DNA from: Candidatus Poribacteria bacterium
Lineage (GTDB): Bacteria > Poribacteria > WGA-4E > WGA-3G
Assembly (NCBI GenBank): GCA_026702755.1
Contig: JAPPBX010000049.1
Coordinates: 12,057 to 76,056, forward strand
Length of the DNA: 64,000 bases
Direction of reading: 5' to 3'
A model generated the notes under the pieces. The model searched no databases and was not told where the DNA came from. It was given only the letters and a program-made list of their open reading frames with translations. Shown piece by piece: positions 10,474 to 26,950 of this stretch (positions within the stretch are counted from its first letter, which is position 1; every line of letters starts with the position of its first letter). Made by a program: the position numbers and the translations under genes.

Positions 10474-10547
10474 GGCTGAGGCTGAGGCAGCTAATGCAGT
10501 GGCGGTGCCATTGCTCGTTTTTTGCTCGGTAAGTGCGTTTATACAGC

Positions 10548-11796: not shown

Positions 11797-11836
11797 AGTG
11801 GTGCTCGAATAGAATCCTAAATCAAAGGAGTTTCCG

Positions 11837-13186
11837 ATGTTCAGCACACAACTCGCGCAGCGTGCGGCAGAGAACAACCCGATCCGTGTCGGGATCATCG
11901 GTGCGGGAAAATTTGGTGCAGGGCTGGTCGCGCAGCTTTCACAGATGCAAGGGATGGTAGCAAGTGCGATTGCAGACATCAATCTGGAACACGCTACAAA
12001 CGCTTATACTGCCAGCAATGTCCCATCCGATGCAATCCTGCAGGCACGAAATGTGAACGCGATGAACGATGCCATCCGTAGCGGTAAACGCGCAGTTACC
12101 GAAGACGGGATGCACGTTATTCAGTCTGACCTGATTGATGTAGTTGTGGAAGCGACTGGCATTCCAGAAGTCGGTGCGCGAATGGCTTACCATACGCTCA
12201 TGCATCGGAAGCATCTGGTGATGGTTAACGTTGAAACGGATGTCACCGTCGGTCCTTTCCTCAGACGCTTAGCGGACAATGCTGGTGTCGTGTATACGCT
12301 CGTCGATGGCGACCAACCCGGTGTGACGATGAATATGGTTGAGTGGGCAAAAACGCTCGGTTTTGAGATCGTTGCTGCGGGACGCGGTACGGTGTTCTAT
12401 GATGATGACCGTGCCGGAATACCAGATACCGTTCCACAACGGTTCGGATTTAGTGAAGAATTGATTGAGCGACGCACGATTAACTTCAAGATGTTCAATT
12501 CGTTCCGAGATGGATCGAAGGCACAGATCGAGATGACCTCCTTGGCGAACATGGCAGGACTACCGCCGGATGTGCGCGGCATGCACGAACCCTCCGTAGA
12601 CATTGCGGACATCGCGGAGGTCTTCAGCTTAAAAGAAGAAGGCGGTATTCTGAGTCGCCACGGTGTTGTTGAACTCGCAAATAGTATTACCACGGATGGC
12701 AAGACGATGCTGGACAATCCACTTCGGATGGGGGTATTCGTCGTTATTCGGACGGATCACCCATTCACCCAAGAAGACCTCGCCAGTTACAACCTGCATC
12801 CGGGGGGTAATGACAATAACTATCTTCTCTACCGTCCCTATCACCTCGTGGCTGTTGAAGCACCGATTTCAATCGCGAAAGCCGCACTCTATGGGCAACC
12901 GACAGGCACACCACTCTCGACACCCGTGGCTGACGTTATCACCGTTGCTAAACGCGACCTGAAAGCGGGAGAGGTCCTCGACGGAAGCGGAGGGTATACC
13001 GTTAACGGACTGATTGAAAAAGCGGAAATTTCACGTGCTGAAAATCTACTTCCCCTCGGTTTAGCGGACAACGCGAAATTAAAATGCGATGCTTCTCAAG
13101 GGGAAGCGATCTCTTATGATATGGTAACGTTAGATGAGGACTCTTTCGTGCTTAAACTTCGCCGCCTCCAAGACGCAACTGTTTGA
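11837..13186 (+). CDS. NAD(P)-binding oxidoreductase with C-terminal SAF-like domain (COG4091-like, predicted homoserine dehydrogenase-like)
   Basis: AAGGAG ribosome-binding site. N-terminal Rossmann motif IRVGIIGAGKFG. Size 449 aa. Confidence 0.5.
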   Translation: MFSTQLAQRAAENNPIRVGIIGAGKFGAGLVAQLSQMQGMVASAIADINLEHATNAYTASNVPSDAILQARNVNAMNDAIRSGKRAVTEDGMHVIQSDLIDVVVEATGIPEVGARMAYHTLMHRKHLVMVNVETDVTVGPFLRRLADNAGVVYTLVDGDQPGVTMNMVEWAKTLGFEIVAAGRGTVFYDDDRAGIPDTVPQRFGFSEELIERRTINFKMFNSFRDGSKAQIEMTSLANMAGLPPDVRGMHEPSVDIADIAEVFSLKEEGGILSRHGVVELANSITTDGKTMLDNPLRMGVFVVIRTDHPFTQEDLASYNLHPGGNDNNYLLYRPYHLVAVEAPISIAKAALYGQPTGTPLSTPVADVITVAKRDLKAGEVLDGSGGYTVNGLIEKAEISRAENLLPLGLADNAKLKCDASQGEAISYDMVTLDEDSFVLKLRRLQDATV

Positions 13187-13214
13187 CAAGCGGTCCGTGA
13201 AACGTTCCGATAGG

Positions 13215-14237
13215 TTATGCCCACGGATGCAGCACGACTTTACCGCACTCACCGGTCGCCTGCAATTCCCACGCCTCCTGTACGTCACGCATCGGGAAGG
13301 TGTGTGTGATAAATGTGTCCAAAGTTTCAGGTGAATCTTGGATTACCTTCATTAATTTTGGATAGACACCAAGGTTGTAGTGCCAATTCCCACGTAGGAC
13401 TAAGCCCTTCCGAATCATGTCTCGGCTTGCTGCGAGCGGAAATTCGCCGCCTTCCCCAACGAATGTGACTTGTCCCTTTCTGCGGGCTGCGTCTACCATC
13501 AACCGGTGCGCTGCTGATGCTCCTGAGCAGTCCACTGCCTTGTCAATCCCGACACCGTCCGTTAAATCCCGAATTTGATCGAGAATATCTTCGTTAGTCG
13601 GGTCCAAGACGACCTCTGCGCCCAACTTTCTCGCGAGTTCAGCACGATACGGATGACTCTCTACACCAATGACACGCGCACCGCGATAGTGAGCATTGAT
13701 AATACCGCCAAGTCCGACGGGACCTAACCCAGTTACCATGACTGTATCCAATGAATTGACCTGCATCTGCTCCATGGCACCGAACGTCGGTCCGAGTCCA
13801 CAGCATGCCATCCCAGCGTGTTCATAACTGACACCCTCTGGAATCGGACATAACATATCCTCCATTTTGTGCATATACTGTGCATAAGTTGCCGAAGCCA
13901 CGTCTTCTCCGACGAGATCCCGGATACTTGGACGACTGCCTCCCATACAGTGGATGTGCTCACCAATGACACACATCTGACATTTACCACAGGTGTTCTG
14001 TGGTTGAACAACGACGCGGTCCCCTACTTTGACGCGGCCGGGTTGTGCGACTTCCACAACTTCGCCAGCGGCTTCGTGACCAAAACCTTCACCGGTGCCC
14101 CCATGTATGAACCCTTTATATTCCGTACACATCGGGACGGCATGGATTTTGACGACGGCGATATCTCCACCAGCGCGGGGATCCGGTTTTTCAACGACGC
14201 CCCCTTTTTGATCACCGAACATTGCTGCAACCTGCAT
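13215..14237 (-). CDS. zinc-dependent alcohol dehydrogenase family (MDR; threonine/sorbitol dehydrogenase-like)
   Basis: GHEAAGEV zinc-ligand motif. Structural-zinc cysteines CGKCQMC. Rossmann VMVTGLGPVGLG. Confidence 0.85.
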   Translation of the reverse strand: MQVAAMFGDQKGGVVEKPDPRAGGDIAVVKIHAVPMCTEYKGFIHGGTGEGFGHEAAGEVVEVAQPGRVKVGDRVVVQPQNTCGKCQMCVIGEHIHCMGGSRPSIRDLVGEDVASATYAQYMHKMEDMLCPIPEGVSYEHAGMACCGLGPTFGAMEQMQVNSLDTVMVTGLGPVGLGGIINAHYRGARVIGVESHPYRAELARKLGAEVVLDPTNEDILDQIRDLTDGVGIDKAVDCSGASAAHRLMVDAARRKGQVTFVGEGGEFPLAASRDMIRKGLVLRGNWHYNLGVYPKLMKVIQDSPETLDTFITHTFPMRDVQEAWELQATGECGKVVLHPWA

Positions 14238-14403
14238 AAAGCGTATAAAACCGAGACTCTCCGCATCCTCGACAAAGGTTTACGAGGCTTGCATCGCGAA
14301 GAGAAAAGGTTCTCCTCCTTCCTAAAATGTGTTAATACCATAGCATACGTGATGAAATCTATCAAGGTAAATTGATGGGAGCATTGAAGACAAAATTATA
14401 GCG

Positions 14404-15153
14404 TTATCCTCGCCTTAAAAGATCGGCTAAAGGCGTATACTCGCTGTTTTGAGATAATTCCGTAATAACAGCGTTTCCGCTACGCTTGAAGAACTTGTAT
14501 GCCCTTCCATCAGGTGCAGAGGTGAGGATACGGTAGTTTTCCCCAACGATCTCAATCGCTGCGTTATTATCACAAGCGATTCCGATACCACCCCGTTTTG
14601 CGATCATCTGTGAGAAGGAGGCTTCTCGTTTCTCGACGTGATAATGCGGACAGTAGACTGCGTTGATGAATCCGAGTCCCCTGACACGGATATAGTCCCA
14701 GTCGGCGTTGCTGTAGAAAGAACTGGAATCGCTATGTCCGTATCTAAACCAGCAGATCGCGCCGGCACTGAGACCCGATAGAACGGTGCCGCGGGACGCA
14801 GCCTCCGCCAATACGGTATCTAATCCCAATCTTCGCCATAACTTCATCATCTTGTAGGTGTTCCCACCCCCAACATAGACGAGGTCCGAATCCAAGACCA
14901 ACGTGGACATTTCATCAAACGAAGGTGGATTTTGAATGAGTTTGAGCGTGCGCGTCTGGCATCCAAGATGTTCACCGTAAACCTTTTCAAAAGTATCAAT
15001 GTATCCAGGCGCGTCGCTGCTGGCGGTTGGAATGAAGAGTGCCTTCGGTCGTGTCTTACCGGTCAATTCAACAATGCGTTTGTCAATCGCAGCGGTTTCC
15101 AATTCTCTAATTTCTCCGCCACCAATTGCAACAATTTTCGGTACTGCTTTCAT
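14404..15153 (-). CDS. peptidase S51 family (dipeptidase E / cyanophycinase-like)
   Basis: Start chosen at internal ATG (MKAVPKIVAIGGG). VYVGGGNTYKMM and GLSAGAICW motifs typical of PepE-like class I glutamine-amidotransferase-like peptidases. Confidence 0.7.
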   Translation of the reverse strand: MKAVPKIVAIGGGEIRELETAAIDKRIVELTGKTRPKALFIPTASSDAPGYIDTFEKVYGEHLGCQTRTLKLIQNPPSFDEMSTLVLDSDLVYVGGGNTYKMMKLWRRLGLDTVLAEAASRGTVLSGLSAGAICWFRYGHSDSSSFYSNADWDYIRVRGLGFINAVYCPHYHVEKREASFSQMIAKRGGIGIACDNNAAIEIVGENYRILTSAPDGRAYKFFKRSGNAVITELSQNSEYTPLADLLRRG

Positions 15154-15311
15154 AAATCGTCCTTTTATTTCATTAACATTTCGGTTGTGTTGCAAACTCG
15201 ATTTGCGCACGCCAAAGGCAAGAATCGTAGCACAAACTTTGAGTGTATGGTATATTTGGCGCAAACTGGAAAGTTTGTGCTACATTTATCAAACTCACAT
15301 TGATTAAAAGC

Positions 15312-15330
15312 ACTCCGCTGGAGTGGGAGA
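15312..15330. promoter_or_regulatory. 17-bp palindrome AGCACTCCGCTGGAGTG in a divergent promoter region; second copy at 30305..30321
   Basis: Perfect inverted repeat CACTCC/GGAGTG with a 3-nt spacer, identical in both places. Confidence 0.35.
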
Positions 15331-15533
15331 ATTCATCCACGATCAAATCTGCAGTAGCATGATACATCGCGTCGGGTTCCTAAAACTTTAAGTTGACCTC
15401 ACGTTAACACTAACAACTTCGAGAAAAACTATCAAGTACATTTAGAAATTTAACTACATTTTCACCAAATAATTGTGGTAAAATGAAAAGGGAAACGCAT
15501 AAAAGTGTCCCTAACGTCTTAAGGAGGAACGTG

Positions 15534-16289
15534 ATGGCATCTGAACAGACAGGTTTGACACCTGCGCAAAAAACGTCCTACGAGGAAAACGGGTATCTCA
15601 TCCTTGAAAGTGTCCTTGCGCCCGAAGAGTGCGAGACCTTCGTTGAACATATAGAAGACCTTCACGCGGGACGTAAGCACCTTGAAGGTTTTTTTCAACA
15701 GGATAAATACGGCGCAAGGACCTTCAATCAGCATCTCTACGACCCGCGCGTATTGGATTTACTTATTGACTCCCGCTTGCATAAACCGCTATCGGACTGT
15801 TTTGGCGGCGAACCGGAAGGGGTTCAATCGATGCATTTTTTTGAAGGGTCCGAGCATCCGTTGCATCAAGATCAGTACTATCTACCGGATTGTATGTCAG
15901 CATGGATTGCGATGGTTCGTGTCGATGAAGACAACGGACCGCTGATAGTCCAGCCCGGTTCACACAGAGGCAGGTTGATTACAAAGAGCGATGTGCCTAT
16001 GACATTGCAACCGGGAGAGACGTACGAGCTGCAGCAGCATAATCGTTATTTTCCCGCGGTCAAACAAGTCTTTCGCGAAAATGGTAAAGACGCAGTCGAG
16101 GTCATGGTAAATCCGGGAGATGTGGTTCTGTTTGACGGGAAACTGATTCATGGTGGTGCGAAAGTTTTAAAACCCGGCACGCGTAGGCACGCATTGGCAT
16201 GCCACTATATCCCTTATGCCTCGGAAAACTGGGAACGGGATTGGCCTCGCATTTCATTTGACGGCAGTCGGCGGATTCATTATCAGTAA
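15534..16289 (+). CDS. phytanoyl-CoA dioxygenase (PhyH) family Fe(II)/2OG oxygenase
   Basis: AGGAGG ribosome-binding site before ATG at 15534. HQDQYY (HxD) and distal LIHGG histidine. Confidence 0.8.
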   Translation: MASEQTGLTPAQKTSYEENGYLILESVLAPEECETFVEHIEDLHAGRKHLEGFFQQDKYGARTFNQHLYDPRVLDLLIDSRLHKPLSDCFGGEPEGVQSMHFFEGSEHPLHQDQYYLPDCMSAWIAMVRVDEDNGPLIVQPGSHRGRLITKSDVPMTLQPGETYELQQHNRYFPAVKQVFRENGKDAVEVMVNPGDVVLFDGKLIHGGAKVLKPGTRRHALACHYIPYASENWERDWPRISFDGSRRIHYQ

Positions 16290-16437
16290 AGTCGGAGTCG
16301 CAATTTAAAAAAAGAAATTGAGAATTGACATTCCACAACTTGTGTGCTATCTTTAATGACTAACGCCTTGGCAATTGGCAACGCTTGAATGTCTCCAAAC
16401 GGAAAAAGACAACGAAATGAAATAAGGAGAAGAGATA

Positions 16438-19053
16438 ATGCGATATCTACTGACATTTTGGATCTGTTTAACCCTAATAAGTGGTTATTGCCTATCAGTT
16501 TCTGCGCAGGAAGCAGCACAACCCGCGGCACAAGCAGCACCCGCAAAAAAGAAAAAAGAGTTTGAAGATTTTTCAAAAATTACTGAAGACAGCAAAAGCT
16601 ACCAAGGTTTTTTCAAACTATACGAAAAAAAAGAGAATCTCTATTGTGAAATACAACCCTCACAATTAGACAAACCTTTTCTGTGCATGATTAGTCTTTC
16701 ACGCGGTTTAGCGCGAGGTCGCCTTATTTCTGGAATGACGATGGAAGAGTGGCTGCTCGTCTGGCGGCGTGTCGGCGACAAGGTGCACCTCGTGCGAAAA
16801 AACGTACGTTTCCGCGCTGATAAAGGGACACCGACCGCACAATCCGTTGACTACAGCTACAGCGATTCTGTGCTCTTCTCTCTCAAGATTGAAAGTATAC
16901 ACCCACAACGAGGCAGTCTATTGGTGAATATTTCGCCTGTCTTTATGTCTGACCTACCACCGTTAGCAGGTAGTATTGGCGGAGGTGCCCGTTTTGACAA
17001 AACGCGTAGCACTTGGGGAAAAATCAAAGCATTCCCGAAGAACGTTGAATTGAGAGTTGAAGCGGTATACGCATCGAACAGCTATATAACAACGGTTCCT
17101 GACAGTCGCGGTATCCAGTTGACGTTGCACTATAGTCTCGCTGAACTTCCATCAAACAACTACCGCCCGCGGCTTGCTGATGACCGGGTCGGACATTTCA
17201 TGACAACCGTCAAGGACTACTCGCTTCAAACCAGCGATGCGCCGTATATTCGTTACGTCAATAGATGGCATTTAGAGAAAGCGGACAAAAAGGCGAAACT
17301 TTCGCCACCAATGGATCCAATCATTTTCTATATTGAGAAAACAGTACCACATCGTTTCCGTCCGTACATTCGTCAAGGGATCCTGGAATGGAACAAGGCG
17401 TTTGAAAAAGCAGGATTTGTTGACGCAATAGAAGCACGGATCCAACAAGATTATGAGGATTGGGACCCGGAAGACGCACGGTATAACACGATTCGTTGGG
17501 TTGTTGATGCGGGTTTCGCTATTGGTCCGTCCCGCGTGAATCCATTGACGGGTCAGATATTGGATGCCGATATCCTTATCAGCGACGGCTTCATCAGATC
17601 CTGGCAGCGGGAGTATTCGACGTACTTTGATGAACTCGATCATGAACGGGACCACCCGATGGATCACTCCTCACGGTTCCATTGTCAGATGGCATCCGGA
17701 TTGGCACGCCAGATGGGGTTCATGGCGAGCGTTCTGCAGGCGCGGGGTGTGGTCGGTGAAGACGGCGAATTGCCGGAAGCGTTTATCGGTCAGGCACTTA
17801 AAGCACTGACGATGCACGAAGTTGGACATACGTTGGGGTTGCGTCACAACTTTAAAGCGAGTACGATACATTCGCTTGATGACTTGAACAAGAAAAGCGA
17901 TGAAGCACTCCTCGGCTCCGTAATGGAATACGACGCTGTGAACATTGCCCCTGAAGGTAAAAAACAGGGCGATTACTATACAACAACAATTGGGCCCTGG
18001 GACTACTGGGTGATCGAGTATGCCTATAAATCGATCAATGCGAGTAACCCTGAAGGTGAACTAAAGGAGTTGGGCAAGATCGCTTCCCGTGTCGCAACAC
18101 CAGGACTGACGTACGGCACAGACGGCGATGCGTCCTCATATCAATATAGGGATTTGGACCCGCTGGTTAATCGGTGGGACCTCGGTTCGGATCCGCTCGA
18201 TTTTGCCAAACAACGTCGCGAGATTGTCGTTGAACTCTGGGACAAGATTGCTGACAAAGTTGCAAAAGAAGGGATGGGTTATCAGCGTGTCAGGCGTGCC
18301 TTCGGGTCCCTGCTTGGTGAACACGGTTATTCCATGTACCTTGCAAGCCGTTATATCGGCGGGCAGTATCACCATCGCGATCATCGTGGCGATGAGAATG
18401 GACGTTTACCCTTCGTGCCTGTTCCGGCGGCGAAACAACGCGAGGCACTTGAGTTCCTCAAAGAACATGCGCTCTCGGACAAAGCCTTCGATTTTCCTCC
18501 TGATTTACTCAACAGTCTCGCTGTCACACGTTGGAGCGACTGGGGCTCCGGGACCGGGGGGTCTACACGTTTGGATTATCCGGTGCATACTGTCATCCTA
18601 CGCAATCAGACCCGCATTTTGGGACGCTTGCTCTATCCGAATGTGCTTGCCCGCGTTCAGGACACAGAGTTGAAGTTTCCTGAGGGTGAAGACGCGTTTA
18701 CACTACCAGAACTCTTCTCAGGTATTACGGATGCGGTTTGGACAGAACTGGATCGGAATGTCGGAGAAAAGCAGTGGTCGAATACGGATGCATTCATCTC
18801 CAGTTTCCGGCGCGCGTTGCAACGTGAACACTTGAAGCAACTCATCAAATTGATACTGGATGCGGATAGTGGAACGCCTGAGGATGCAAGGTCGCTTGCT
18901 CGACATCATCTCGGACAAATCAATACTCGGATACAAGGCGTGCTTCAGAATGCCCAAGGGAGACTTGACGACTATAGCTTGGCACACCTCCAAGAATCGC
19001 AAGTCCGAGTCGCGAAGGCGTTGGATGCCAGTTTCCAAGTCCAGAAGCGTTAA
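16438..19053 (+). CDS. secreted zinc-dependent metalloprotease, 871 aa (DUF4953/DUF5117-like), tandem copy 1
   Basis: Signal peptide. MHEVGHTLGLRHNF zinc-binding HExxHxxGxxH motif followed by SVMEY. AAGGAG ribosome-binding site. Confidence 0.8.
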   Translation: MRYLLTFWICLTLISGYCLSVSAQEAAQPAAQAAPAKKKKEFEDFSKITEDSKSYQGFFKLYEKKENLYCEIQPSQLDKPFLCMISLSRGLARGRLISGMTMEEWLLVWRRVGDKVHLVRKNVRFRADKGTPTAQSVDYSYSDSVLFSLKIESIHPQRGSLLVNISPVFMSDLPPLAGSIGGGARFDKTRSTWGKIKAFPKNVELRVEAVYASNSYITTVPDSRGIQLTLHYSLAELPSNNYRPRLADDRVGHFMTTVKDYSLQTSDAPYIRYVNRWHLEKADKKAKLSPPMDPIIFYIEKTVPHRFRPYIRQGILEWNKAFEKAGFVDAIEARIQQDYEDWDPEDARYNTIRWVVDAGFAIGPSRVNPLTGQILDADILISDGFIRSWQREYSTYFDELDHERDHPMDHSSRFHCQMASGLARQMGFMASVLQARGVVGEDGELPEAFIGQALKALTMHEVGHTLGLRHNFKASTIHSLDDLNKKSDEALLGSVMEYDAVNIAPEGKKQGDYYTTTIGPWDYWVIEYAYKSINASNPEGELKELGKIASRVATPGLTYGTDGDASSYQYRDLDPLVNRWDLGSDPLDFAKQRREIVVELWDKIADKVAKEGMGYQRVRRAFGSLLGEHGYSMYLASRYIGGQYHHRDHRGDENGRLPFVPVPAAKQREALEFLKEHALSDKAFDFPPDLLNSLAVTRWSDWGSGTGGSTRLDYPVHTVILRNQTRILGRLLYPNVLARVQDTELKFPEGEDAFTLPELFSGITDAVWTELDRNVGEKQWSNTDAFISSFRRALQREHLKQLIKLILDADSGTPEDARSLARHHLGQINTRIQGVLQNAQGRLDDYSLAHLQESQVRVAKALDASFQVQKR

Positions 19054-19142
19054 GTGCTTGTACGTTTCGGTCAGGATTTTCATAAAACCCAACTACTTTC
19101 TGGCGGGGTTGATGAAGATTAAGAATTTAATTTGGTAATGTA

Positions 19143-19180
19143 GGGGCAGGCACAAGACCTGCCCCTACAATCATTTTCCT
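19143..19180 (+). terminator. hairpin GGGGCAGGCACAAGACCTGCCCC downstream of copy 1 (terminator-like; weak T-tract)
   Basis: 8-bp perfect stem. The same hairpin recurs at 24592 and a variant at 45620. Confidence 0.4.
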
Positions 19181-19279
19181 CAAGGATATTACCGAAATAT
19201 TTATTTAAACTTCATCAAACCCCGCCAACCTCAGTAAGTTTTCGCTTGTCAGCTGCACCCAAAATCAGGAGAAAAAATA

Positions 19280-21898
19280 GTGCGACCTCTATTCACTTTT
19301 TGGATCTGTTTAACGCTAATATGTAGTTATTGCCTTTCGGTAGCTGCTCAGGAAGCAGCACAACCCGCAAAACCCGCAACACAGGAAACACCTAAAAAAA
19401 CAAAAAAAGAGTTCCAAGATTTCGCAAAGGTAACTGAAGACAGCAAAAGCTACCAAGGCTTTTTCAAACTCTACCAGAAGAAAGAGAACCTCTATTGCGA
19501 GATACAACCCGCACAACTGAACCAGCCTTTTTTATTTTTGATTACGATTTCAGGCGGTATGGGGAACAACTTCCTCGCCGCAGGGGAGATCTGGGATCAG
19601 TGGCTGCTTGCTTGGCGACGTGTCGGCGACAATGTGCATCTCGTGCGAAAAAACACCCGTTTCCGCGCTGATAAAGGGACACCGACCGCACAAGCCGTTG
19701 CGTATGGTTATAGTGACTCTGTGCTATTTTCTCTCAAGATTGAAAGTATCCATGCACAACGGAAAAGCCTTTTGGTAAACATTTCACCCGTTTTCATCTC
19801 CGATCTACCCCCCTTGGCACGCTATATTGGTGGTGCTTTCGACAAAACGCGTAGCACTTGGGGAAAAATCAAGGCGTTCCCAAAGAATGTCGAGTTGAAA
19901 GTCAAAGCCGTCTACACATCAACACGCTACATAGAGGCTGTCCCCGATAGTCGTGGGATTCAGTTGACGCTGCATTACAGCCTCGCGAAACTCCCAGAAA
20001 ACAACTATCGTCCTCGGTTGGCTGACGACCGGCTTGGGCACTTTATGACAGCGATCAAAGACTATTCACTTCAAACCAGTGATGCCCCCTTCACCCGCTA
20101 TGTCCAGCGATGGCATCTGGAGAAGGCAGACAAAAAAGCGAAACTTTCACCGCCGAAAAAACCGATTATCTTTTACATCGAGAAAACGGTGCCACACCGC
20201 TACCGTCCCTACATCCGACAAGGGATTCTCGAATGGAACAAGGCGTTTGAAAAGGCAGGCTTTGTCGATGCAATTGAGGCACGCATTCAACAAGATTATG
20301 AAGATTGGGATCCCGAAGACGCACGCTATAATACGATCCGTTGGATTGTCGGTGCAACTTTTGGGTATGGTCCATCCCGCGTGAATCCACTCACAGGCGA
20401 GATCTTGGATGCCGATATCCTTTTGGGTGACGGTTGGATCAGATACTGGCAGCAAGATCACAGAACCTTCTTTGATAAACTGGCGTATGAACGCGATCAT
20501 CCGATGGATCACACTTCACACTTTCGGTGTCAGATGTCATCCGGCTTGGCACATCAGATGAACCTCATGGCGAGTGTGTTGCAGGCGCGTGGTTTGACAG
20601 ATGAAGGCGGTGAACCATCAGAAGTTTATGTCGGGGAAGCAATGAAATTATTGGTGATGCATGAAGTAGGACATACGTTAGGGTTACGTCACAACTTTAA
20701 AGCGAGTACAATACTCTCCCTTGAAGAACTGAACACGAAAAAAGACGAACCCCTCTACGGTTCCGTCATGGAATACGAAGCCGTGAATATCGCTCCCGAA
20801 GGCGAAAAGCAAGGACATTTCTTTTCACCGACAGTCGGTCCTTGGGATGACTGGGTGATCGAGTATGCCTATAAACCGATCGACGCAAGCAAACCTGAAG
20901 ATGAATTGGAAGCGTTGGGTAAAATCGCTTCCCGTGTCGCAGCACCGGAACTCACTTACGGCACAGATGAAGATGTTTACGGCTATCAATACCGTAATCT
21001 GGATCCGCTGGTAAATCTTTGGGATCTGGGTGCCGACCCATTTGAGTTCGCCAAACAACGGCGCGAGATCATCGTTAAACTTTGGGAGAAAATTGCGGAC
21101 AAGGTTATAAAAGAGGGGATGGGCTATCAACGTGTCCGGCGAGCCTTCGAGACCCTACTCTATGAACATGAGAGTGCGATGTATCTCGCAAGTCGCTATA
21201 TCGGCGGGCAGTATCACCATCGCGATCACCGCGGCGATGAAAATGGACGTTTACCCTTCGTGCCAGTTCCGGCGGCGAAACAACGCGAAGCACTCCAATT
21301 CCTGAAAGAATACGCCCTTTCCGACAGTGCCTTCGATTTTCCACCCGATCTACTTAACAGCCTCGCTGTCACGCGTTGGAGCGATTGGGGATCAAGTAGC
21401 GGTGGTTCCACACGTTTGGACTACCCCGTGCATCAGGTCATCCTATGGAATCAAACCTTTATCTTGGAACGGCTGCTTTATCCGAATGTTCTCGCGCGGA
21501 TTCAGGACACAGAATTGAAGTTTCCCAAAGGTGAAGATGTGTTCACACTGCCTGAACTCTTTTCAGGTATCACGGACGCGGTCTGGGTAGAACTCGATCG
21601 GAATGTCGGCGAAAAGCAGTGGTCGAATACCGATGCTTTCATTTCCAGTTTCCGGCGCGGGCTGCAGCGGGAACACCTCAAGCAGCTTATCAAACTGGTG
21701 TTGGATGCCGACAGTGGCACCCCCGAAGATGCGCGATCCCTCGCACGCCTACATCTCGAAGAAATCAACACGCAGATACAAGGTGTGCTTCAGAATGCCC
21801 AAGGGAGACTCGATGATTATAGTCTGGCGCACCTCAAAGAGTCGCAAGTTCGCGTCGCGAAGGCGTTGGATGCAAGTTTTCAAGTTCAGAAACGTTAG
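19280..21898 (+). CDS. secreted zinc-dependent metalloprotease, 872 aa, tandem copy 2 (GTG start)
   Basis: Same architecture and LVMHEVGHTLGLRHNF motif. Starts with GTG after a CAGGAG ribosome-binding site. Confidence 0.8.
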   Translation: MRPLFTFWICLTLICSYCLSVAAQEAAQPAKPATQETPKKTKKEFQDFAKVTEDSKSYQGFFKLYQKKENLYCEIQPAQLNQPFLFLITISGGMGNNFLAAGEIWDQWLLAWRRVGDNVHLVRKNTRFRADKGTPTAQAVAYGYSDSVLFSLKIESIHAQRKSLLVNISPVFISDLPPLARYIGGAFDKTRSTWGKIKAFPKNVELKVKAVYTSTRYIEAVPDSRGIQLTLHYSLAKLPENNYRPRLADDRLGHFMTAIKDYSLQTSDAPFTRYVQRWHLEKADKKAKLSPPKKPIIFYIEKTVPHRYRPYIRQGILEWNKAFEKAGFVDAIEARIQQDYEDWDPEDARYNTIRWIVGATFGYGPSRVNPLTGEILDADILLGDGWIRYWQQDHRTFFDKLAYERDHPMDHTSHFRCQMSSGLAHQMNLMASVLQARGLTDEGGEPSEVYVGEAMKLLVMHEVGHTLGLRHNFKASTILSLEELNTKKDEPLYGSVMEYEAVNIAPEGEKQGHFFSPTVGPWDDWVIEYAYKPIDASKPEDELEALGKIASRVAAPELTYGTDEDVYGYQYRNLDPLVNLWDLGADPFEFAKQRREIIVKLWEKIADKVIKEGMGYQRVRRAFETLLYEHESAMYLASRYIGGQYHHRDHRGDENGRLPFVPVPAAKQREALQFLKEYALSDSAFDFPPDLLNSLAVTRWSDWGSSSGGSTRLDYPVHQVILWNQTFILERLLYPNVLARIQDTELKFPKGEDVFTLPELFSGITDAVWVELDRNVGEKQWSNTDAFISSFRRGLQREHLKQLIKLVLDADSGTPEDARSLARLHLEEINTQIQGVLQNAQGRLDDYSLAHLKESQVRVAKALDASFQVQKR

Positions 21899-21948
21899 AC
21901 CGAATTTACAACGTGAAAGTAAATAATGTAAAATAAGGAGAAAATTCA

Positions 21949-24564
21949 ATGCAACGCCAATTGACTTTTTGGCTCTGTTTAATTCTAATCAGCAGTTGTT
22001 ACCTGCCGATATTCGCACAACAAGCAGCACAACCCGCAACACAAGAAGCACCCACGAAACCAAAAAAAGAGTTCCCAGACTTCTCGAAAGTTATCGAGGA
22101 TAGCAAAAGCTACCAAGGTTTTTTCAAACTATACCAGAAAAAAGAGAATCTTTATTGTGAGATACAACCCGCACAATTGAACCAACCCTTTCTATGCATG
22201 ATTAGTCTTGCGCGCGGCTTAGGGAGAGGATCCCTTATCTCTGGGATGACGATGGATGAGTGGCTGCTGGTCTGGCGACGCGTTGGCGACAACGTGCATC
22301 TCATGCGAAAAAATGTGCGTTTCCGCGCTGATAAAGGGACACCGACCGCACAGGCGGTTGACTACGGTTATAGTGACTCTGTGCTGTTCTCTCTTAAGAT
22401 TGAAAGTATCCATCCACAACGGAAAAGCCTTTTGGTAAATATCTCACCTGTTTTTGTATCCGATCTACCGCCTTTGGCACGTAGGATCGCCCCAGATGCG
22501 CGCTTCGACAGAACGCGCAGCACTTGGGGAAAAATCAAGACATTCCCAAAGAATGTGGAGTTGAAAGTTAACGCGGCGTACACCTCGTCAAGTTATATAG
22601 AAACTGTGCCCGACAGTCGTGGGATTCAATTGACGCTGCACTATAGCCTCGCGAAACTTCCATCGAACAACTACCGTCCTCGGTTGGCTGACGACCGGCT
22701 TGGACACTTTATGACAACAATCAAAGATTACTCGCTTCAAACCAGCGATGCGCCGTATATCCGTTACGTCAATCGATGGCATCTGGAGAAAGCAGACAAA
22801 AAGGCGAAACTCTCACCTCCGATGGATCCGATCATTTTCTACATTGAGAAAACGGTGCCGCACCGGTTTCGTCCGTACATTCGCCAAGGGATCCTGGAAT
22901 GGAACAAGGCATTTGAAAAGGCAGGCTTTGTCGATGCAATTGAGGCACGTATTCAACAAGATTACGAGGATTGGGACCCCGAAGATGCCCGCTATAACAC
23001 GATCCGCTGGGTTGTTGACGCAGGCTTCGCGATTGGTCCGTCCCGCGTGAACCCGTTGACAGGACAGATATTGGATGCCGATATTCTTATCAGCGACGTT
23101 TTTATCAGAAGTTGGCAGCGACAGTATAAAACATACTTTGATGAGTTAGCACACGAGCGCGATCATCCGATGGATCACACCTCACACTTTCAGTGTCAAC
23201 TGGCATCTGGATTGACACGTCAGATGGGGTTCATGGCGAGCGTCTTGCAGGCACGCGGTCTGACGGGCGAAGACGGTGAATTACCAGAAAAATTTATCGG
23301 CGAGGCACTGAAAACACTGACGATGCATGAGGTCGGTCACACATTGGGATTACGTCACAATTTTAAATCGAGTACGATATACTCTCTTGACGATCTGAAC
23401 GACAAAACAGACGAGGCAACCGTCGGTTCCGTCATGGATTACTGGGGCGTGAATGTTGCTCCCGAAGGTAAAGAACAGGGACATTACTATACGCCGACGG
23501 TTGGTCCTTGGGATTATTGGGTCGTCGAGTATGCCTATAAACCGATTGCTGCAAGTAACCCTGAAGGTGAATTGGAGGCATTGGGTAAAATCGCCTCCCG
23601 TGTCGCAACACCGGAACTTACCTACGGAACAGATGGCGATGTTTACAGCTATCAATACCGTAATCTGGATCCGCTGGTAAATGTTTGGGATCTGGGTGCC
23701 GACCCGCTTGAGTTTGCCAAACAACGGCGAGAAATTGTCGTTAACCTTTGGGACAAAATTGCGGATAAGGTCACAAAAGAGGGGATGGGCTATCAACGGG
23801 TCCGACAGGCATTTGGGAGATTGCTTGGTGAACATGCGAATGCGATGTACTTTGCAAGCCGATATATCGGTGGGCAGTATCACCATCGCGATCATCGCGG
23901 TGATGAAAATGGACGTTTACCTTTTGTGCCGGTTCTCGCAGCGAAACAACGCGAAGCACTCCAATTCCTCAAAGAACACGCCCTCTCGGACAAAGCCTTC
24001 GATTTCTCGGCTGACCTACTCAACAGTCTCGCTGTCACGCGTTGGAGTGATTGGGGATCAAGTAGTGGGAGTTCTACGCGTTTGGATTATCCCGTGCATC
24101 AGATCATTCTGAACAATCAAACCTTTATCTTGGGACGACTGCTTTATCCGAATGTTCTGGCGCGGATTCAGGACACAGAGTTGAAGTTTCCTAAGGGTGA
24201 AGATGTGTTCACACTGCCAGAACTCTTTTCAGGTATCACGGACGCTGTCTGGGTAGAACTTGATCGGAATGTCGGCGAAAAGCAGTGGTCGAATACCGAT
24301 GCTTTCATTTCCAGTTTCCGGCGCGGTTTGCAGCGGGAACACCTCAAGCAGCTTATCAAACTGGTGTTGGAGGCTGATAGTGGCACCCCGGAGGATGCAA
24401 GGTCGCTCGCACGCCTACATCTCGAAGAAATCAACACGCAGATACAAGGCGTACTTCAGAATGCGCAAGGGAGACTTGACGATTATAGTTTAGCACACCT
24501 CGAAGAATCGCAGGTCCGAGTCGCAAAGGCTCTGGATGCGAGTTTCCAAGTTCAGAAACGGTGA
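21949..24564 (+). CDS. secreted zinc-dependent metalloprotease, 871 aa, tandem copy 3
   Basis: Same architecture. LTMHEVGHTLGLRHNF. AAGGAG ribosome-binding site. Only 50 bp after copy 2. Confidence 0.8.
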   Translation: MQRQLTFWLCLILISSCYLPIFAQQAAQPATQEAPTKPKKEFPDFSKVIEDSKSYQGFFKLYQKKENLYCEIQPAQLNQPFLCMISLARGLGRGSLISGMTMDEWLLVWRRVGDNVHLMRKNVRFRADKGTPTAQAVDYGYSDSVLFSLKIESIHPQRKSLLVNISPVFVSDLPPLARRIAPDARFDRTRSTWGKIKTFPKNVELKVNAAYTSSSYIETVPDSRGIQLTLHYSLAKLPSNNYRPRLADDRLGHFMTTIKDYSLQTSDAPYIRYVNRWHLEKADKKAKLSPPMDPIIFYIEKTVPHRFRPYIRQGILEWNKAFEKAGFVDAIEARIQQDYEDWDPEDARYNTIRWVVDAGFAIGPSRVNPLTGQILDADILISDVFIRSWQRQYKTYFDELAHERDHPMDHTSHFQCQLASGLTRQMGFMASVLQARGLTGEDGELPEKFIGEALKTLTMHEVGHTLGLRHNFKSSTIYSLDDLNDKTDEATVGSVMDYWGVNVAPEGKEQGHYYTPTVGPWDYWVVEYAYKPIAASNPEGELEALGKIASRVATPELTYGTDGDVYSYQYRNLDPLVNVWDLGADPLEFAKQRREIVVNLWDKIADKVTKEGMGYQRVRQAFGRLLGEHANAMYFASRYIGGQYHHRDHRGDENGRLPFVPVLAAKQREALQFLKEHALSDKAFDFSADLLNSLAVTRWSDWGSSSGSSTRLDYPVHQIILNNQTFILGRLLYPNVLARIQDTELKFPKGEDVFTLPELFSGITDAVWVELDRNVGEKQWSNTDAFISSFRRGLQREHLKQLIKLVLEADSGTPEDARSLARLHLEEINTQIQGVLQNAQGRLDDYSLAHLEESQVRVAKALDASFQVQKR

Positions 24565-24591
24565 ATGCTCGGACGTTTCGGTCAGTAATTG

Positions 24592-24628
24592 CGGGCAGGC
24601 ACAAGACCTGCCCCTACAATGTTTTTTA
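24592..24628 (+). terminator. rho-independent terminator-like hairpin (GGGCAGGCACAAGACCTGCCC followed by TGTTTTTTAC)
   Basis: Perfect stem plus downstream T-tract, just after the copy 3 stop. Confidence 0.55.
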
Positions 24629-24667
24629 CGGGTAACATTACTGAAGTATTTATTTAAACTTCATCAA

Positions 24668-24860
24668 ACCGCACTATAGGTATCAATTTAGGGGTTTTCG
24701 AGGTATTTTGTAACAGCCTTTCTACAGTTTTTCTACAAAGATACTGAAGAAATACCCAAGCAAATAAACCCTACGGGATTCAAGAGGGTTTTGGAATCTT
24801 CAAGGGTTCTGTGTAAAATCCGATGCGGTTAGAAACTGCACCTACCGGGCTTGCGGGGAA
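24668..24860. repeat. repeat family 1 copy
   Basis: Collinear with 3294..3520, except that 3294..3520 carries an extra CCCTACGG module of about 50 bp. Confidence 0.7.
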
Positions 24861-24980
24861 TTGGGATTACCGATTTAAATAATTAAACTTCATACAGTTT
24901 GTGGTACAAAAACACCGCCCATCGCAAAGCAAAACGCGCAATGAATTGCGCTACTACAAACAAAAACTTAGGAGGAACGG

Positions 24981-25913
24981 ATGGAAATTCTTCAATATAC
25001 GCCCGATATGCAAGCATCCTTAACCCAATTTTATAATCACTTGACCGTCGATGTTCCGCACTGTTATCCAGTCAAGGAGGAAGAATTTGCTATTGCGGTA
25101 CGTGAGGTTACGACCGATAAATCAGATGTAAAGGACGGAGGTCTTGACTCGGAAACTGCCTTTGTTGCAATGGTGAACGGTGCTGTGCAAGCGTTTATTC
25201 ATATCGGCATCGGTCAGGTCTGGAATCACGAGGAAAGGAAAGAGAACGCTGGCATTATTCGGTTTCTTGGTTACGAACGCGGGGCGCGGCAAGTTGGGCA
25301 AGCCGTGCTTGAAAAGGCGGAAGATTATCTGAAAACTTATGATATTTCTCAGATTTTCGCCTTTTCACAGGACTGCCGATACCGCTTCTATCATTTTGCA
25401 CACGCCTATCTATCGGACGCGCTTGATCAAGTTCAAGGCCTCCTTGGATATAATGGATACCACCGTTCCAATGGCGAGGTCTTTCTGGATTGGGAAGACT
25501 ATTCCGTTACACCAGTACCTTCAAATCTGCCGGTAACGCTTTCTATCGACTGGAAGGACGGGCGTGGACAACTCCCGAATTGTACTGTGCTCGCCCACCA
25601 AGACGGCGAACAGGTCGGCATCTGTGAGTCCCTCTGCGGTGGTGAGTTCTCAAGCCACGCCGATGCACAAAACTGGCTTCATACTGTCTGGCTCGGTATT
25701 GAAGATGATTTTCAGGGACAGGGTTTGGGACGCTATCTGCTTCAATACGCGCTTCAAGAGATGAAGAAAATCGGATACCAACATGCAGCGATTAGCACTG
25801 CTTGGGATAACCACCGCGCGTTCCTCTTTTATAGCAACTGCGGTTATTGGACCGTAGATTGGACTTATGAATTCGTCAAAGACCTCTCCAAAGCACCAAC
25901 GGAAAAGTGGTAA
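24981..25913 (+). CDS. GNAT-fold acyltransferase-like protein, 310 aa (paralog A)
   Basis: AGGAGG ribosome-binding site. C-terminal QGQGLGRYLLQYALQEMKKIGY...FYSNCGY resembles GNAT motifs A and B. Confidence 0.6.
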   Translation: MEILQYTPDMQASLTQFYNHLTVDVPHCYPVKEEEFAIAVREVTTDKSDVKDGGLDSETAFVAMVNGAVQAFIHIGIGQVWNHEERKENAGIIRFLGYERGARQVGQAVLEKAEDYLKTYDISQIFAFSQDCRYRFYHFAHAYLSDALDQVQGLLGYNGYHRSNGEVFLDWEDYSVTPVPSNLPVTLSIDWKDGRGQLPNCTVLAHQDGEQVGICESLCGGEFSSHADAQNWLHTVWLGIEDDFQGQGLGRYLLQYALQEMKKIGYQHAAISTAWDNHRAFLFYSNCGYWTVDWTYEFVKDLSKAPTEKW

Positions 25914-26035
25914 CCTCAGATTCAGACAATCAGCACGACCTTAAAGGCAGCATCTCACTTCTCGTTTTCTGGGTGGAAGTGGGGACGGAGCAATTCTGCT
26001 GTGAGATGTTCCGTAAAAGGAGAGTAGAAAAAGAG

Positions 26036-26950
26036 ATGGAAATTTTACAATATACACCCGACATGCAAGCACCTCTCACCCAATTTTATAATCGCTTGAT
26101 CACCGATGTTCCGCATTGCTACCCTGTAACGGAGGGAGAATTTGCTATTGTACTACGCGGGGTTACGACTGGTAAAGCCGACAAAGATGACTTTGGACGT
26201 GGACTCGACTCCGAAACTGCCTTCGTCGCGATGACGGAGGGTGCAGTGCAGGCGTTTATTCACGTCGGTCTCACTCAGATGAGAGATGAGGATGTAGGTA
26301 TTATTCGGTTCTTGGGCTACGAACGTGGGGCACGGCGCGCTGGACAAGCCGCCCTTGAAAAGGCGGAAACCTATCTGAAATCATTTAATGTAACCCGAAT
26401 TTTCGCTGCCGAGCGTCGATATCGTTTCTATCATTTTGAATACGCCTGTCTATCGGATGCACTTGATCAGGTTCAAGGACTCCTTGGATTCAACGGATAC
26501 CACCGTTCCAACGGATGGGTCTTTTTAGACTGGGAAAACTACGATGTTACACCAATACCGGCACCTATACCGGTAACGCTTTCTGTAGAGTGGAAGGACG
26601 AACGCGGACAACGTCCAGATAGCGTCATAAAAGCCTATCAAGGTGATGAAGAGATTGGCTTATGTGTATCTGTCTCTGGTGGTGAGTATTCGGACCACCC
26701 GGATGCACAGGATTGGTTCCATACGGTTTATCTTGAGATTGAAGGTGAGTTTCAAGGACAGGGGTTAGGACGCTACCTGCTCCAATACGCACTTCAAGAG
26801 ATGAAGAAAATCGGATACCAGCACGCAACAATCAGCACGCGCTGGGATGATTATCGCGCACTTCTCTTTTACAGCAACTGCGGTTATCGGGTTGCAGATT
26901 GGACCTACGCCTATGAAAAAGTGCTCTCTGAACCGCCAACGCCCAATTAA
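26036..26950 (+). CDS. GNAT-fold acyltransferase-like protein, 304 aa (paralog B)
   Basis: Start moved to the ATG at 26036 with an AAGGAG ribosome-binding site (the ORF-track start at 25907 lacks one). Collinear with paralog A throughout. Confidence 0.6.
   Translation: MEILQYTPDMQAPLTQFYNRLITDVPHCYPVTEGEFAIVLRGVTTGKADKDDFGRGLDSETAFVAMTEGAVQAFIHVGLTQMRDEDVGIIRFLGYERGARRAGQAALEKAETYLKSFNVTRIFAAERRYRFYHFEYACLSDALDQVQGLLGFNGYHRSNGWVFLDWENYDVTPIPAPIPVTLSVEWKDERGQRPDSVIKAYQGDEEIGLCVSVSGGEYSDHPDAQDWFHTVYLEIEGEFQGQGLGRYLLQYALQEMKKIGYQHATISTRWDDYRALLFYSNCGYRVADWTYAYEKVLSEPPTPN

Follow-up and report, generated by a model that had tools for sequence, protein, structure and literature searches.

The three-gene tandem array described here lies in a window of 64,000 nucleotides, the whole stretch of DNA that was analysed, from a Candidatus Poribacteria genome (a sponge symbiont), and very probably consists of old tandem duplicates in which the second copy has accelerated and the 3' ends have been reshaped by recombination. 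The genes are co-oriented on the forward strand and encode proteins of 871, 872 and 871 amino acids: copy 1 at 16438..19053 (ATG start; defined by ORF, domain search and trees), copy 2 at 19280..21898 (GTG start; identical to NCBI protein MCY3550627.1) and copy 3 at 21949..24564 (ATG start). The spacers of 226 bp between copies 1 and 2 and 50 bp between copies 2 and 3 were found as reported by the initial annotation, whose quoted peptide strings are also correct, and copy 2 alone uses GTG, which in the alignment takes exactly the place of the ATG in the other two copies, with an AGGAG upstream common to all three. A promoter-like site with putative function is located 5' of copy 1 on the forward strand (16325..16353; TTGACA, a 17-nt spacer and TATCTT, with TG), matching at 10 of 12 positions in a consensus scan. 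The spacer between copies 2 and 3 (21899..21948, forward strand) contains only a ribosome-binding site, without a terminator, and its counterpart in the relative L081 measures 932 bp and carries a HicB-like ORF. Copies 2 and 3 are probably co-transcribed, and the hairpin 3' of copy 1 probably terminates transcription.

The three domain models named in the initial annotation, DUF5118, DUF5117 and DUF4953, are matched in this order by each of the three proteins, with every domain above its Pfam cut-off. DUF4953 (PF16313) scored 265, 257 and 259 bits in copies 1 to 3 against a gathering threshold of 24.2, DUF5117 scored 99–110 bits against a cut-off of 27, and DUF5118 scored 29.8–33 bits against a cut-off of 27, which is marginal and passes in each copy. 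The zinc-binding motif HEVGHTLGLRHNF, already noted for each copy, was located on the forward strand at 17815..17853 in copy 1 (H460, E461, H464 and H470), 20660–20698 in copy 2 and 23326–23364 in copy 3, and the extended motif HExxHxxGxxH is present in all of them as HEVGHTLGLRH. Among 76 homologs with 33–86% identity to copy 1, residues H460, E461, G463, H464, G467 and N471 are invariant and H470 is at least 90% conserved. A candidate Met-turn, SVMEY, occurs in copy 1 at 17917..17931 (forward strand), 24 residues past the third histidine, and its S494, M496 and Y498 are each at least 90% conserved in the homolog alignment; the fold of the catalytic domain resembles that of solved metzincins. 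A Sec signal peptide predicted by eye in copy 1 (MRYLLTFWICLTLISGYCLSVSA/Q, 16438..16506, forward strand) has equivalents in copies 2 and 3, the N-termini exhibiting a positive start (MR...), a hydrophobic core and VSA/Q, and the AF2 model places a helix at residues 2–18 followed by a disordered segment at 20–38. No lipobox or recognised C-terminal sorting domain was seen in the array proteins.

From its sequence, each gene is predicted to encode a zinc endopeptidase of roughly 870 amino acids that is exported by the Sec pathway and built of several domains: DUF5118 and DUF5117 form a beta region at the N-terminus, DUF4953 (carrying HExxHxxGxxH and the conserved SVM(E/D)Y) forms the metzincin-type catalytic domain, and a helical domain lies at the C-terminus. 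Since the catalytic residues are kept and purifying selection is observed in all copies (omega 0.08–0.14 between copies), the three proteins are probably three active isoenzymes. Nothing sets them apart at the family level from other Pfam DUF4953 ('Met-zincin') proteins, all three models being matched, and the array is particular in its lineage-specific three-copy tandem; the NCBI name of copy 2 and of the family is 'zinc-dependent metalloprotease'. Full-length homologs of 850–950 amino acids with 36–50% identity form 6,588 clusters at 50% identity (E≤0.001), phmmer against the PDB gave no match and no close solved structure, and no NCBIfam model exceeded its cut-off for the array proteins. 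Similarity to the metzincins, such as serralysin/alkaline protease, astacin, MMPs, snapalysin and EcxA, is limited to about 30–50 residues at the zinc site. In contrast to these enzymes, the catalytic domain of the array proteins is flanked on one side by a beta domain of about 260 residues that is specific to the family and on the other by a helical domain of about 280 residues. No convincing counterpart of either flanking domain exists among solved structures, and RTX, hemopexin and CUB modules are lacking. The literature search on the DUF5118/DUF5117/DUF4953 family and on Poribacteria metalloproteases returned nothing relevant, and no data on enzyme activity, expression or localisation of any member.

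Across Poribacteria the genes occupy one syntenic slot, flanked by PhyH and GNAT genes, in one, two or three copies, with 55 species carrying one copy, 7 carrying two, and three-copy arrays in L081, L083 and L084. The initial annotation had proposed long reads and copy number in related genomes as checks on the array, and both support it. The conspecific L083, a 6.19-Mb long-read contig named circular with 540x coverage, shows the same 226- and 50-bp spacers and is collinear with the window at 96.95% identity over 13,572 bp, its synteny ending at 24830; the same architecture and spacers also occur in a 1.09-Mb contig, and in a third MAG the genes follow the same order but are separated by different spacers. 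Copy 1 is orthologous by position and sequence to the single-copy gene of most Poribacteria, having 90–94% amino-acid identity with the lone gene in each of about 25 species, and groups over alignment positions 1–1650 with the gene L018_1 (100% bootstrap). The orthologs of copy 2 are L007_2, L009_1 and L051_2 (100% bootstrap) and that of copy 3 is L022_2 (100% bootstrap), both clades also reaching 100% over positions 1–1650. The copies are old duplicates, each with its own ortholog in other Poribacteria species.

An origin of copies 2 and 3 by import from co-resident sponge Poribacteria to a place beside copy 1, by which the copy-number differences would represent gains, is unlikely. Synonymous divergence between the same two genomes is heterogeneous across the locus (0.14–0.37), so some copies may have moved between species: the orthologs of copies 2 and 3 (0.14 and 0.16) are less diverged than those of copy 1 (0.32–0.34), PhyH (0.37) and GNATa (0.33). 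Moreover, columns 1051–1650 of copy 3 are nearest to a gene of the distant species L045, and divergence from L083 is patchy, with 0 to 42 differences per 300 nt. However, ADH and pepE in the same locus (0.17–0.20) are as similar as copies 2 and 3, so that copy 1 and PhyH may be the outliers; the order of copies 1, 2 and 3 recurs in the same slot and orientation in three independent genomes, and copies 2 and 3 are mutually sister and nested among Poribacteria genes.

Overall nucleotide identity is 77.6% between copies 1 and 2, 81.1% between copies 1 and 3 and 82.2% between copies 2 and 3, and pairwise identity along the alignment bears out the non-uniform similarity first described. Copies 1 and 3 form the best pair at alignment positions of about 76–1350 (83–88% against 69–80%), and copies 2 and 3 at about 1500–1800 and 2100–2475 (88–95% against 78–86%). 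The dS values are 1.25 (copies 1 and 2), 1.07 (copies 1 and 3) and 0.70 (copies 2 and 3). At synonymous codons, copies 2 and 3 agree against copy 1 in 152 cases, compared with 90 in which copies 1 and 3 agree against copy 2, the former pattern being ahead in eight of nine segments, and trees place the copy 2 clade as sister to the copy 3 clade, giving the order copy 1, (copy 2, copy 3), with 77% bootstrap over positions 1–1650; as synonymous sites between copy 1 and the other two are near saturation, this deep duplication order rests on limited signal. Where copies 1 and 3 share a state that differs from copy 2, the outgroup agrees with them at 64 of 82 sites. Because synonymous sites and trees give this order, the amino-acid resemblance between copies 1 and 3 toward the N-terminus and in the middle of the protein mostly represents retained ancestral residues, and the grouping of these two copies proposed initially holds there as nucleotide and amino-acid resemblance, but not as shared ancestry or conversion.

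These observations bear directly on the interpretation given in the initial annotation, that copy 3 is a mosaic of the other two, with its 5' two thirds converted from or shared with copy 1 and its 3' end with copy 2, which appears quite improbable. Besides the total nucleotide identity at positions 76–1350, it is favored by a triplet test over all sites with copy 3 as the child of copies 1 and 2 (p ~0.001), and by columns 751–1050, in which the copy 3 clade falls within or next to the copy 1 clade in 90 of 100 bootstraps. Against it stand the synonymous codon counts, the ancestral state of the shared residues and the position of copy 3 with copy 2 in the trees, and also the synonymous differences in columns 1–750 and 1051–1650, where copy 3 is nearer to copy 2 (0.30–0.35) than to copy 1 (0.38–0.42). 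In columns 751–1050 the corresponding values (0.31 to copy 2 and 0.36 to copy 1) give no separation, and a conversion tract from copy 1 to copy 3 in these columns, suggested by the all-site bootstraps, is not confirmed by the synonymous codons and is equivocal.

The pattern of copies 1 and 3 against copy 2 therefore reflects faster amino-acid change in copy 2, the fast-evolving paralog, in which 111 derived residues were counted, compared with 64 in copy 1 and 87 in copy 3. Nonsynonymous codons unique to copy 2 number 48, against 19 unique to copy 3 (chi-square 12.6), while the synonymous ones number 90 and 70, respectively (chi-square 2.5). Two clusters of substitutions specific to copy 2 were observed on the forward strand: the first at 19535..19612 (copy 1 residues 83–108) in the N-terminal beta domain, many of its changes being common to the copy 2 orthologs of other species, and the second at 20357..20851 (copy 1 residues 359–523) in the part of the catalytic domain that surrounds the HExxH helix and the Met-turn. 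Stem counts by crude parsimony over amino acids 351–530 gave 20 nonsynonymous and 10 synonymous changes for copy 2, and 5 and 10 for copy 3. A rough omega of about 0.7 for the copy 2 stem, assuming about three nonsynonymous sites per synonymous site, is well above background but not above 1, for which reason positive selection is not claimed.

The old duplicates also bear marks of recombination in their 3' third. A homogenised tract is shared by copies 2 and 3 in codon-alignment columns 2191–2520 (21458..21787 in copy 2 and 24124..24453 in copy 3, both on the forward strand), where the proportion of differing synonymous codons is 0.18, compared with 0.33 in columns 1–1500. Copies 2 and 3, L007_2 and L022_2 form one star-like cluster in this tract (0.15–0.21), with L009_1 and L051_2 outside, and the exact identity runs of 65, 43 and 44 nt between copies 2 and 3 are found only here. 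In the alignment from column 2251 onwards, copies 2 and 3, L007_2, L022_2 and L018_1 cluster with 92% bootstrap, and the topology switches between segments at 92–100% bootstrap. The strong evidence for recombination comes from the orthologs in other genomes: L018_1 is chimeric, of copy 1 type over positions 1–1650 and of copy 3 type from 1651, with the parent switch at about position 1650–1680 (triplet breakpoint test, p<5e-5), and L007_2 contains a patch of copy 3 type in columns 2041–2190, with 2 synonymous differences from copy 3 against 16 from copy 2. The window's own trio, with synonymous codons alone, gives only p=0.04 for a switch in pattern, and the breakpoint testing suggested initially was significant in the triplet tests. 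The antisense shadow ORFs at 21502–21771 and 24168–24437 differ, as reported, at 3 of 89 residues, but the description of their DNA as near-identical was somewhat overstated, the identity being 93.7% (17 mismatches in 270), with copy 1 at 81–84% to copies 2 and 3 in this region.

The homogenisation of the 3' ends of copies 2 and 3 is old and common to sister species, and since most of it predates the split from these species, the similarity is mostly not recent. A smaller conversion tract of about 150 bp from copy 3 to copy 2 (21524..21673 in copy 2 and 24190–24339 in copy 3, forward strand) is probably recent and specific to the present strain, on modest and weaker evidence: over its 150 columns, copies 2 and 3 show 7 mismatches in the window compared with 15, 13 and 16 in L083, L084 and L081, and 12 of the 15 differences of copy 2 from the conspecific allele carry the base of copy 3 (Fisher p=0.02).

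That the uneven similarity arose without recombination, from selective constraint that differs along the protein, the C-terminal domain being conserved and the remainder, N-terminal and central, variable, is very improbable and already contradicted. In all pairs dN does fall far lower in the 3' third (0.02–0.08 against 0.10–0.19 elsewhere), and much of the contrast between copies 1 and 3 and copy 2 is a rate effect, but constraint cannot alter tree topology, and in the 3' segment copy 2 and L007_2 leave L009_1 and L051_2 for copy 3 and L022_2 (92%); the fall in synonymous difference between copies 2 and 3 and the parent switch of L018_1 likewise argue against it. An assembly artefact, whether from repeats that were collapsed or expanded or from a chimeric contig, has practically no likelihood and is already contradicted, as the copies differ by 18–22%, far above the level that confuses assemblers, with long exact runs between copies 2 and 3 limited to one stretch of about 190 bp, and the same array is found in the two long contigs and, in the same order, in the third MAG.

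The window contains the sequence GGGCAGGCACAAGACCTGCCCCTACA two times in all, at 19144 and 24593 (expected by chance, 0), and the flank ATTAC(C/T)GAA(A/G)TATTTATTTAAACTTCATC is present 3' of copies 1 and 3 and absent after copy 2, as first noted. This hairpin-plus-flank does not belong to an ancestral duplication unit: its inverted repeats and an empty site in L081 mark it as a MITE-like insertion, and it is missing from the closest relative with three copies. The terminator stem of copy 1 (ggcggggtt ... aaaccccgcc; 19102..19226, forward strand) is split by a 106-bp insert at 19111–19216, in which inverted terminal repeats (19111–19139 and 19188–19216, one arm being the reverse complement of the other at 22 of 29 positions) surround the hairpin at 19139–19169; in L081 the corresponding site carries the hairpin ggcggggttgcaaaccccgcc without interruption. 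No clear target-site duplication was seen at the insert. The repeat arm is matched only 4 times in the window, each time at the present locus, and 13 times across 1.56 Mb of related loci. The 3' flank of copy 3 (24565..24670, forward strand) is a flank of copy 1 type with a 67-bp internal deletion, in which the hairpin (24593–24618), the right inverted repeat (24637–24665) and a portion of the split terminator's right half remain, and the flanks of the copy 3 orthologs in L081 and L022 differ. A degenerate third copy of the right inverted repeat, with 6 mismatches, lies on the forward strand at 24866..24894 and adjoins a REP-like palindrome at 24823–24855. Membership of the hairpin in a dispersed REP family was considered and rejected, the exact motif being found in the window only at this locus, with one 74% relative at 45621. 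Rfam gave no match over the whole window, so the spacers contain no known RNA element.

The history that best fits these observations begins with two successive duplications at one slot, the first separating copy 1 from the ancestor of copies 2 and 3 and the second separating copy 2 from copy 3, both older than the separation of several Poribacteria species. Amino-acid substitutions then accumulated rapidly in copy 2, mostly in its N-terminal beta domain and near the active site, and the copy has been conserved since. The 3' ends of copies 2 and 3 were homogenised before the species split from its nearest relatives, with the smaller strain-specific tract from copy 3 to copy 2 probably added later; relatives carry chimeric genes, and deletion of copies has left the one, two or three copies observed now. 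The exchange is assumed to be of RecA-type homologous recombination, and its confinement to the 3' third may be attributed to the longest exact-identity runs there. Of the repeated duplication followed by segmental conversion proposed initially, the in-situ duplicates and the mosaic 3' third are retained.

Concerted evolution and gene conversion are familiar between duplicated bacterial genes, such as tufA/tufB in Salmonella and tandem surface-protein families. The array resembles such systems in its short tracts between co-oriented paralogs at the longest exact identity, in its chimeras and in copy loss by unequal recombination. In contrast to such systems, homogenisation here is partial and mostly old, and along most of the gene the paralogs have evaded conversion and diverged (18–22% of nucleotides), one of them asymmetrically at the protein level. 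The array is a real but ordinary case of gene-family evolution, with no new mechanism. It provides a clean and well-controlled case of how tandem paralogs are born, diverge, undergo conversion and are lost in a phylum of sponge symbionts that is uncultured but has many complete long-read genomes, and flags an abundant, unstudied protease family of thousands of sequence clusters with no paper or solved structure found. In the sponge mesohyl the proteins may help to degrade protein from the host or from particles, copy 2 perhaps being shifted in specificity, and one lineage keeping three isoforms may bear on the use of such protein by Poribacteria; copy 2 and its substituted residues are candidates for altered specificity. 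A bolder and rather doubtful reading is that copy 2 is a neofunctionalised isoenzyme, its specificity altered by the substitutions near the active-site helix, in the Met-turn region and in one beta hairpin of the N-terminal domain, and that the slot is a recombination hot spot where co-resident Poribacteria species acquire, lose and swap protease isoforms directed at sponge matrix proteins; if true, this uncultured symbiont phylum would have a protease repertoire that is adaptive and faces the host.

The array comprises three co-oriented protease genes on the forward strand, namely copy 1 (16438–19053; 871 aa, ATG start), copy 2 (19280–21898; 872 aa, GTG start) and copy 3 (21949–24564; 871 aa, ATG start), with 226 bp between copies 1 and 2 and 50 bp between copies 2 and 3; this layout, including a GTG start in copy 2 only, was read in the sequence as the initial annotation had described it. 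The whole-gene nucleotide identities were 77.6% for copies 1 and 2, 81.1% for copies 1 and 3 and 82.2% for copies 2 and 3. The similarity was also non-uniform along the gene, as had been claimed, with copies 1 and 3 being the closest pair across ~76–1350, and copies 2 and 3 at ~1500–1800 and ~2100–2475, where nucleotide identity rises to 88–95%. The paired antisense shadow ORFs do differ at 3 of 89 residues, while the description of their DNA as near-identical was mildly overstated (93.7%, 17 mismatches in 270), and copy 1 is only 81–84% identical to copies 2 and 3 in this stretch.

Three-copy arrays were detected in three additional assemblies. The conspecific L083, a 6.19-Mb long-read contig (circular and at 540x coverage, according to its name), and L084, a 1.09-Mb contig, both display the exact layout of the window (871 aa, 226 bp, 872 aa, 50 bp, 871 aa), and L083 is collinear with window positions 11260–24830 (13,572 bp, 96.95% identity). 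The close relative L081, a separate MAG (GCA_028821605.1), has the same gene order, copies 94–95.5% identical in nucleotides to copies 1, 2 and 3, and spacers of 123 and 932 bp. The three-copy feature is thus real, an assembly artefact being excluded by the same array and spacers in L083 and L084, by the third MAG and by the 18–22% separating the copies. The 932-bp spacer of L081, with a HicB-like ORF, is the counterpart of the 50-bp spacer between copies 2 and 3, so the array is structurally fluid among genomes whose protease genes are 94–97% identical in nucleotides.

One genome per species was scanned, and of the 80 loci obtained almost all carry a Candidatus or uncultured Poribacteria title, a group of sponge symbionts; the copy 2 protein is identical to NCBI MCY3550627.1 from a Poribacteria MAG. 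The gene order throughout the phylum is alcohol dehydrogenase, (peptidase S51), PhyH, protease gene(s), GNAT acetyltransferase(s) and methyltransferase, and the slot holds one protease gene in 55 and two in 7 of the species representatives that are sufficiently flanked on either side, and three in the further assemblies L081, L083 and L084. Two protease genes each also occupy this slot in L023, L024 and L038, from more distant Poribacteria lineages, where the segment-dependent similarity within genomes (74–92%) suggests independent duplication or conversion. Variable cargo was observed in the slot of relatives, such as an IS transposase in L018 (12974–14119); a secreted WD40-repeat protein gene downstream of the array in L007 (15585–17435), at whose position L009, L022, L051 and L016 have a matching signal-peptide ORF start; and an IS605 OrfB/TnpB-like gene together with the HicB-like ORF of the spacer in L081 (2006–3277, 9899–10219). 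A second tandem duplication lies directly downstream of the array, consisting of two GNAT acetyltransferase genes (24981–25913 and 26035–26950; ~310 aa) that are 74–81% identical in nucleotides, and relatives have one or two in the same slot. The 97% collinearity with L083 (13551 onward) ends at 24830, beside MITE/REP remnants, past which, at the place of the window's GNAT genes, L083 contains a large Peptidase_C25 gene and ORFs unrelated to them.

Separate orthologs of each copy were found in other species: the copy 1 orthologs are the single genes of ~25 species (90–94% amino acid identity), the copy 2 orthologs are L007_2, L009_1 and L051_2 (100% bootstrap), and the copy 3 ortholog is L022_2 (100% bootstrap), which indicates that the duplications predate several speciation events. 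The dS values between paralogs were 1.25 (copies 1 and 2), 1.07 (copies 1 and 3) and 0.70 (copies 2 and 3), with omega of 0.08–0.14, and neighbour-joining placed the copy 2 clade as sister to the copy 3 clade with support of 77% for positions 1–1650 and 100% for the whole gene.

The initial annotation took the grouping of copy 1 with copy 3 as a signal of conversion, a grouping that arose because amino acid-changing codons in the 5' 1,500 nt favour it (35 for copies 1 and 3 versus 15 for copies 2 and 3). Synonymous codons, compared where all three copies encode the same residue, gave the reverse order, 152 uniting copies 2 and 3 versus 90 uniting copies 1 and 3, with the former pattern ahead in 8 of 9 segments. 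Copy 2 alone differs at 82 sites, and polarisation with 16 more distant Poribacteria genes as the outgroup revealed the residue of copies 1 and 3 at 64 of these; derived residues numbered 111 in copy 2, 87 in copy 3 and 64 in copy 1. Nonsynonymous codons unique to copy 2 outnumbered those unique to copy 3 (48 versus 19; chi-square ~12.6), and the synonymous counts were 90 and 70 (chi-square ~2.5), both chi-square values being hand arithmetic from the codon-pattern counts. This polarisation and these rates argue that the resemblance of copies 1 and 3 is mainly retained ancestral sequence rather than conversion. The derived residues of copy 2 cluster at 51–150 and 351–523 (copy 1 numbering), most of them common to its orthologs; crude parsimony over residues 351–530 assigned N=20 and S=10 to the copy 2 stem and N=5 and S=10 to the copy 3 stem, and omega between copy 2 and L007_2 is 0.09. 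Copy 2 thus went through a phase of rapid protein change and has stayed conserved afterwards.

Recombination between the copies is nevertheless real and emerges most clearly when orthologs are included, as the window trio alone gave a pattern switch with p ~0.001 at all sites and a marginal p=0.04 at synonymous codons. The single gene of L018 is copy 1-type at 1–1650 (93–95%) and copy 3-type from 1651 (89–97%), with a parent switch at ~1680 (permutation, p<5e-5); such a chimera is the product that would be expected of unequal recombination fusing copy 1 to copy 3 and removing copy 2. A copy 3-type patch occupies alignment columns 2041–2190 of L007_2, with 2 synonymous differences from copy 3 and 16 from copy 2, and in L009_2 the first ~25 nt are copy 3-type and the body copy 1-type. 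In columns 2191–2520 (copy 2, 21458–21787; copy 3, 24124–24453; forward strand), copies 2 and 3 join L007_2 and L022_2 in a single star-like cluster at synonymous-codon differences of 0.15–0.21, outside which fall the more distant copy 2 orthologs L009_1 and L051_2 (0.28–0.39); between column 2251 and the alignment end, a segment overlapping this one, a mixed cluster of copies 2 and 3, L007_2, L022_2 and L018_1 received 92% bootstrap. This tract was homogenised between copies 2 and 3 earlier than the split of the window's species from those of L007, L022 and L018. Over a stretch of 150 columns inside it (copy 2, 21524–21673; copy 3, 24190–24339; forward strand), copies 2 and 3 mismatch at 7 positions in the window versus 15 in L083, 13 in L084 and 16 in L081, and copy 2 carries the copy 3 base at 12 of 15 differences from its conspecific allele versus 25 of 56 upstream, in columns 1–2250 (p=0.02), pointing to a smaller, recent event superimposed on the old tract. 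Exact identity between any two copies extends beyond 40 nt only within this tract, in runs of 65, 43 and 44 nt, which is consistent with homology-dependent exchange. A copy 1-type tract in columns 751–1050 of copy 3 was hinted at by all-site bootstraps and unconfirmed at synonymous codons. In columns 1051–1650 (23000–23583), copy 3 shows a synonymous difference of 0.29 to the single-copy gene (10001–12625) of L045, a more distant Poribacteria species, against 0.41–0.46 to copy 1-type genes and 0.35–0.39 to copy 2 and L007_2, a closeness that hints at between-species exchange. The proposed duplication with segmental gene conversion held in outline, but the proposal erred on which similarity marks conversion and on the shared flank.

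The window has exactly two occurrences of the hairpin motif, 3' of copies 1 and 3, and likewise two of the AT-rich flank. The spacer between copies 1 and 2 in L081 has an intact terminator-like hairpin, ggcggggttgcaaaccccgcc, whose stem halves lie in the window at 19102–19110 and 19217–19226 with 106 bp between them. This insert has imperfect inverted ends (19111–19139 and 19188–19216; 22 of 29 positions matching) and an internal GC hairpin (19139–19169) followed by a T-rich stretch, terminator-like itself. Inserts that share these ends and differ in their internal palindromes occur at the same site in L007, L018 and L051, in the 3' flank of the first protease gene, suggesting a MITE-like mobile insert; the terminator loop is thus a reused insertion site (window 19111–19216), empty in L081 (6878–7000). 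The copy 3 flank is a copy of the copy 1-type flank with a 67-bp internal deletion, and the flanks of the copy 3 orthologs in L081 and L022 are quite different, so the shared flank arose later in this lineage, by acquisition or by flank conversion, and does not descend from the duplication unit. Just past the stop of copy 2-type genes, a dockerin/EF-hand-like remnant, DVDGDGAVNILDF, was observed (L081 9620–9700, L022 12187–12270, L009 9824–9900), perhaps left over from a C-terminal extension since lost or from a neighbouring gene. Elsewhere in the window, intergenic REP-like GC-rich palindromes of several families, such as GGCGAGGATACAATCCTCGCC and GTGCGGTTGCAAACCGCACCTACC, and a 90-nt repeated element were observed (5417–5462, 10969–11014, 34720–34765, 33562–33627, 24823–24855, 45621–45654, 5525–5614, 9824–9913); coding-region repeats (52078–52203; 2178–4434, 50084–50167) are a 42-nt tandem repeat, made up of three units with one further copy at a distance, and a degenerate 84-nt family that may encode TPR-like repeats.

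Each copy contains HEVGHTLGLRHNF and, as the profile search established, matches DUF5118, DUF5117 and DUF4953 ('Met-zincin') above the Pfam curated cut-offs. The family comprises 6,588 clusters at 50% identity (E<=0.001), with a typical length of 850–950 aa; no literature on the DUF5118-DUF5117-DUF4953 protease family was found. In an alignment of 76 homologs (33–86% identity to copy 1), H460, E461, H464, G467 and N471 are invariant and conservation is 90% or more at H470, S494, M496 and Y498, and all three copies retain the conserved catalytic-region residues. The confident AlphaFold2 model of copy 1 (pLDDT 88.7, pTM 0.89) displays a signal-like helix (residues 2–18) and a disordered linker, a beta-rich domain (~45–300), an alpha/beta catalytic domain (~300–560) with the HExxH helix at 447–465, and a helical domain (586–863). 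The three copies are most simply predicted to be active exported zinc endopeptidases. The second substitution cluster of copy 2 (359–523) takes in the active-site helix and the strand preceding it, together with the Met-turn region and the segment that follows, and this position around the active site makes a shifted specificity of copy 2 plausible.

Only known kinds are represented here: the proteases belong to a metzincin-clan family that Pfam already holds, and the array is one of tandem paralogs with asymmetric divergence, conversion and unequal-crossover loss. That it constitutes a protease repertoire that is adaptive and exchangeable, with copy 2 neofunctionalised, is tenable but rather unlikely; judging from the lifestyle of the organism, the proteases may help to break down particulate protein or the host matrix within the sponge mesohyl.
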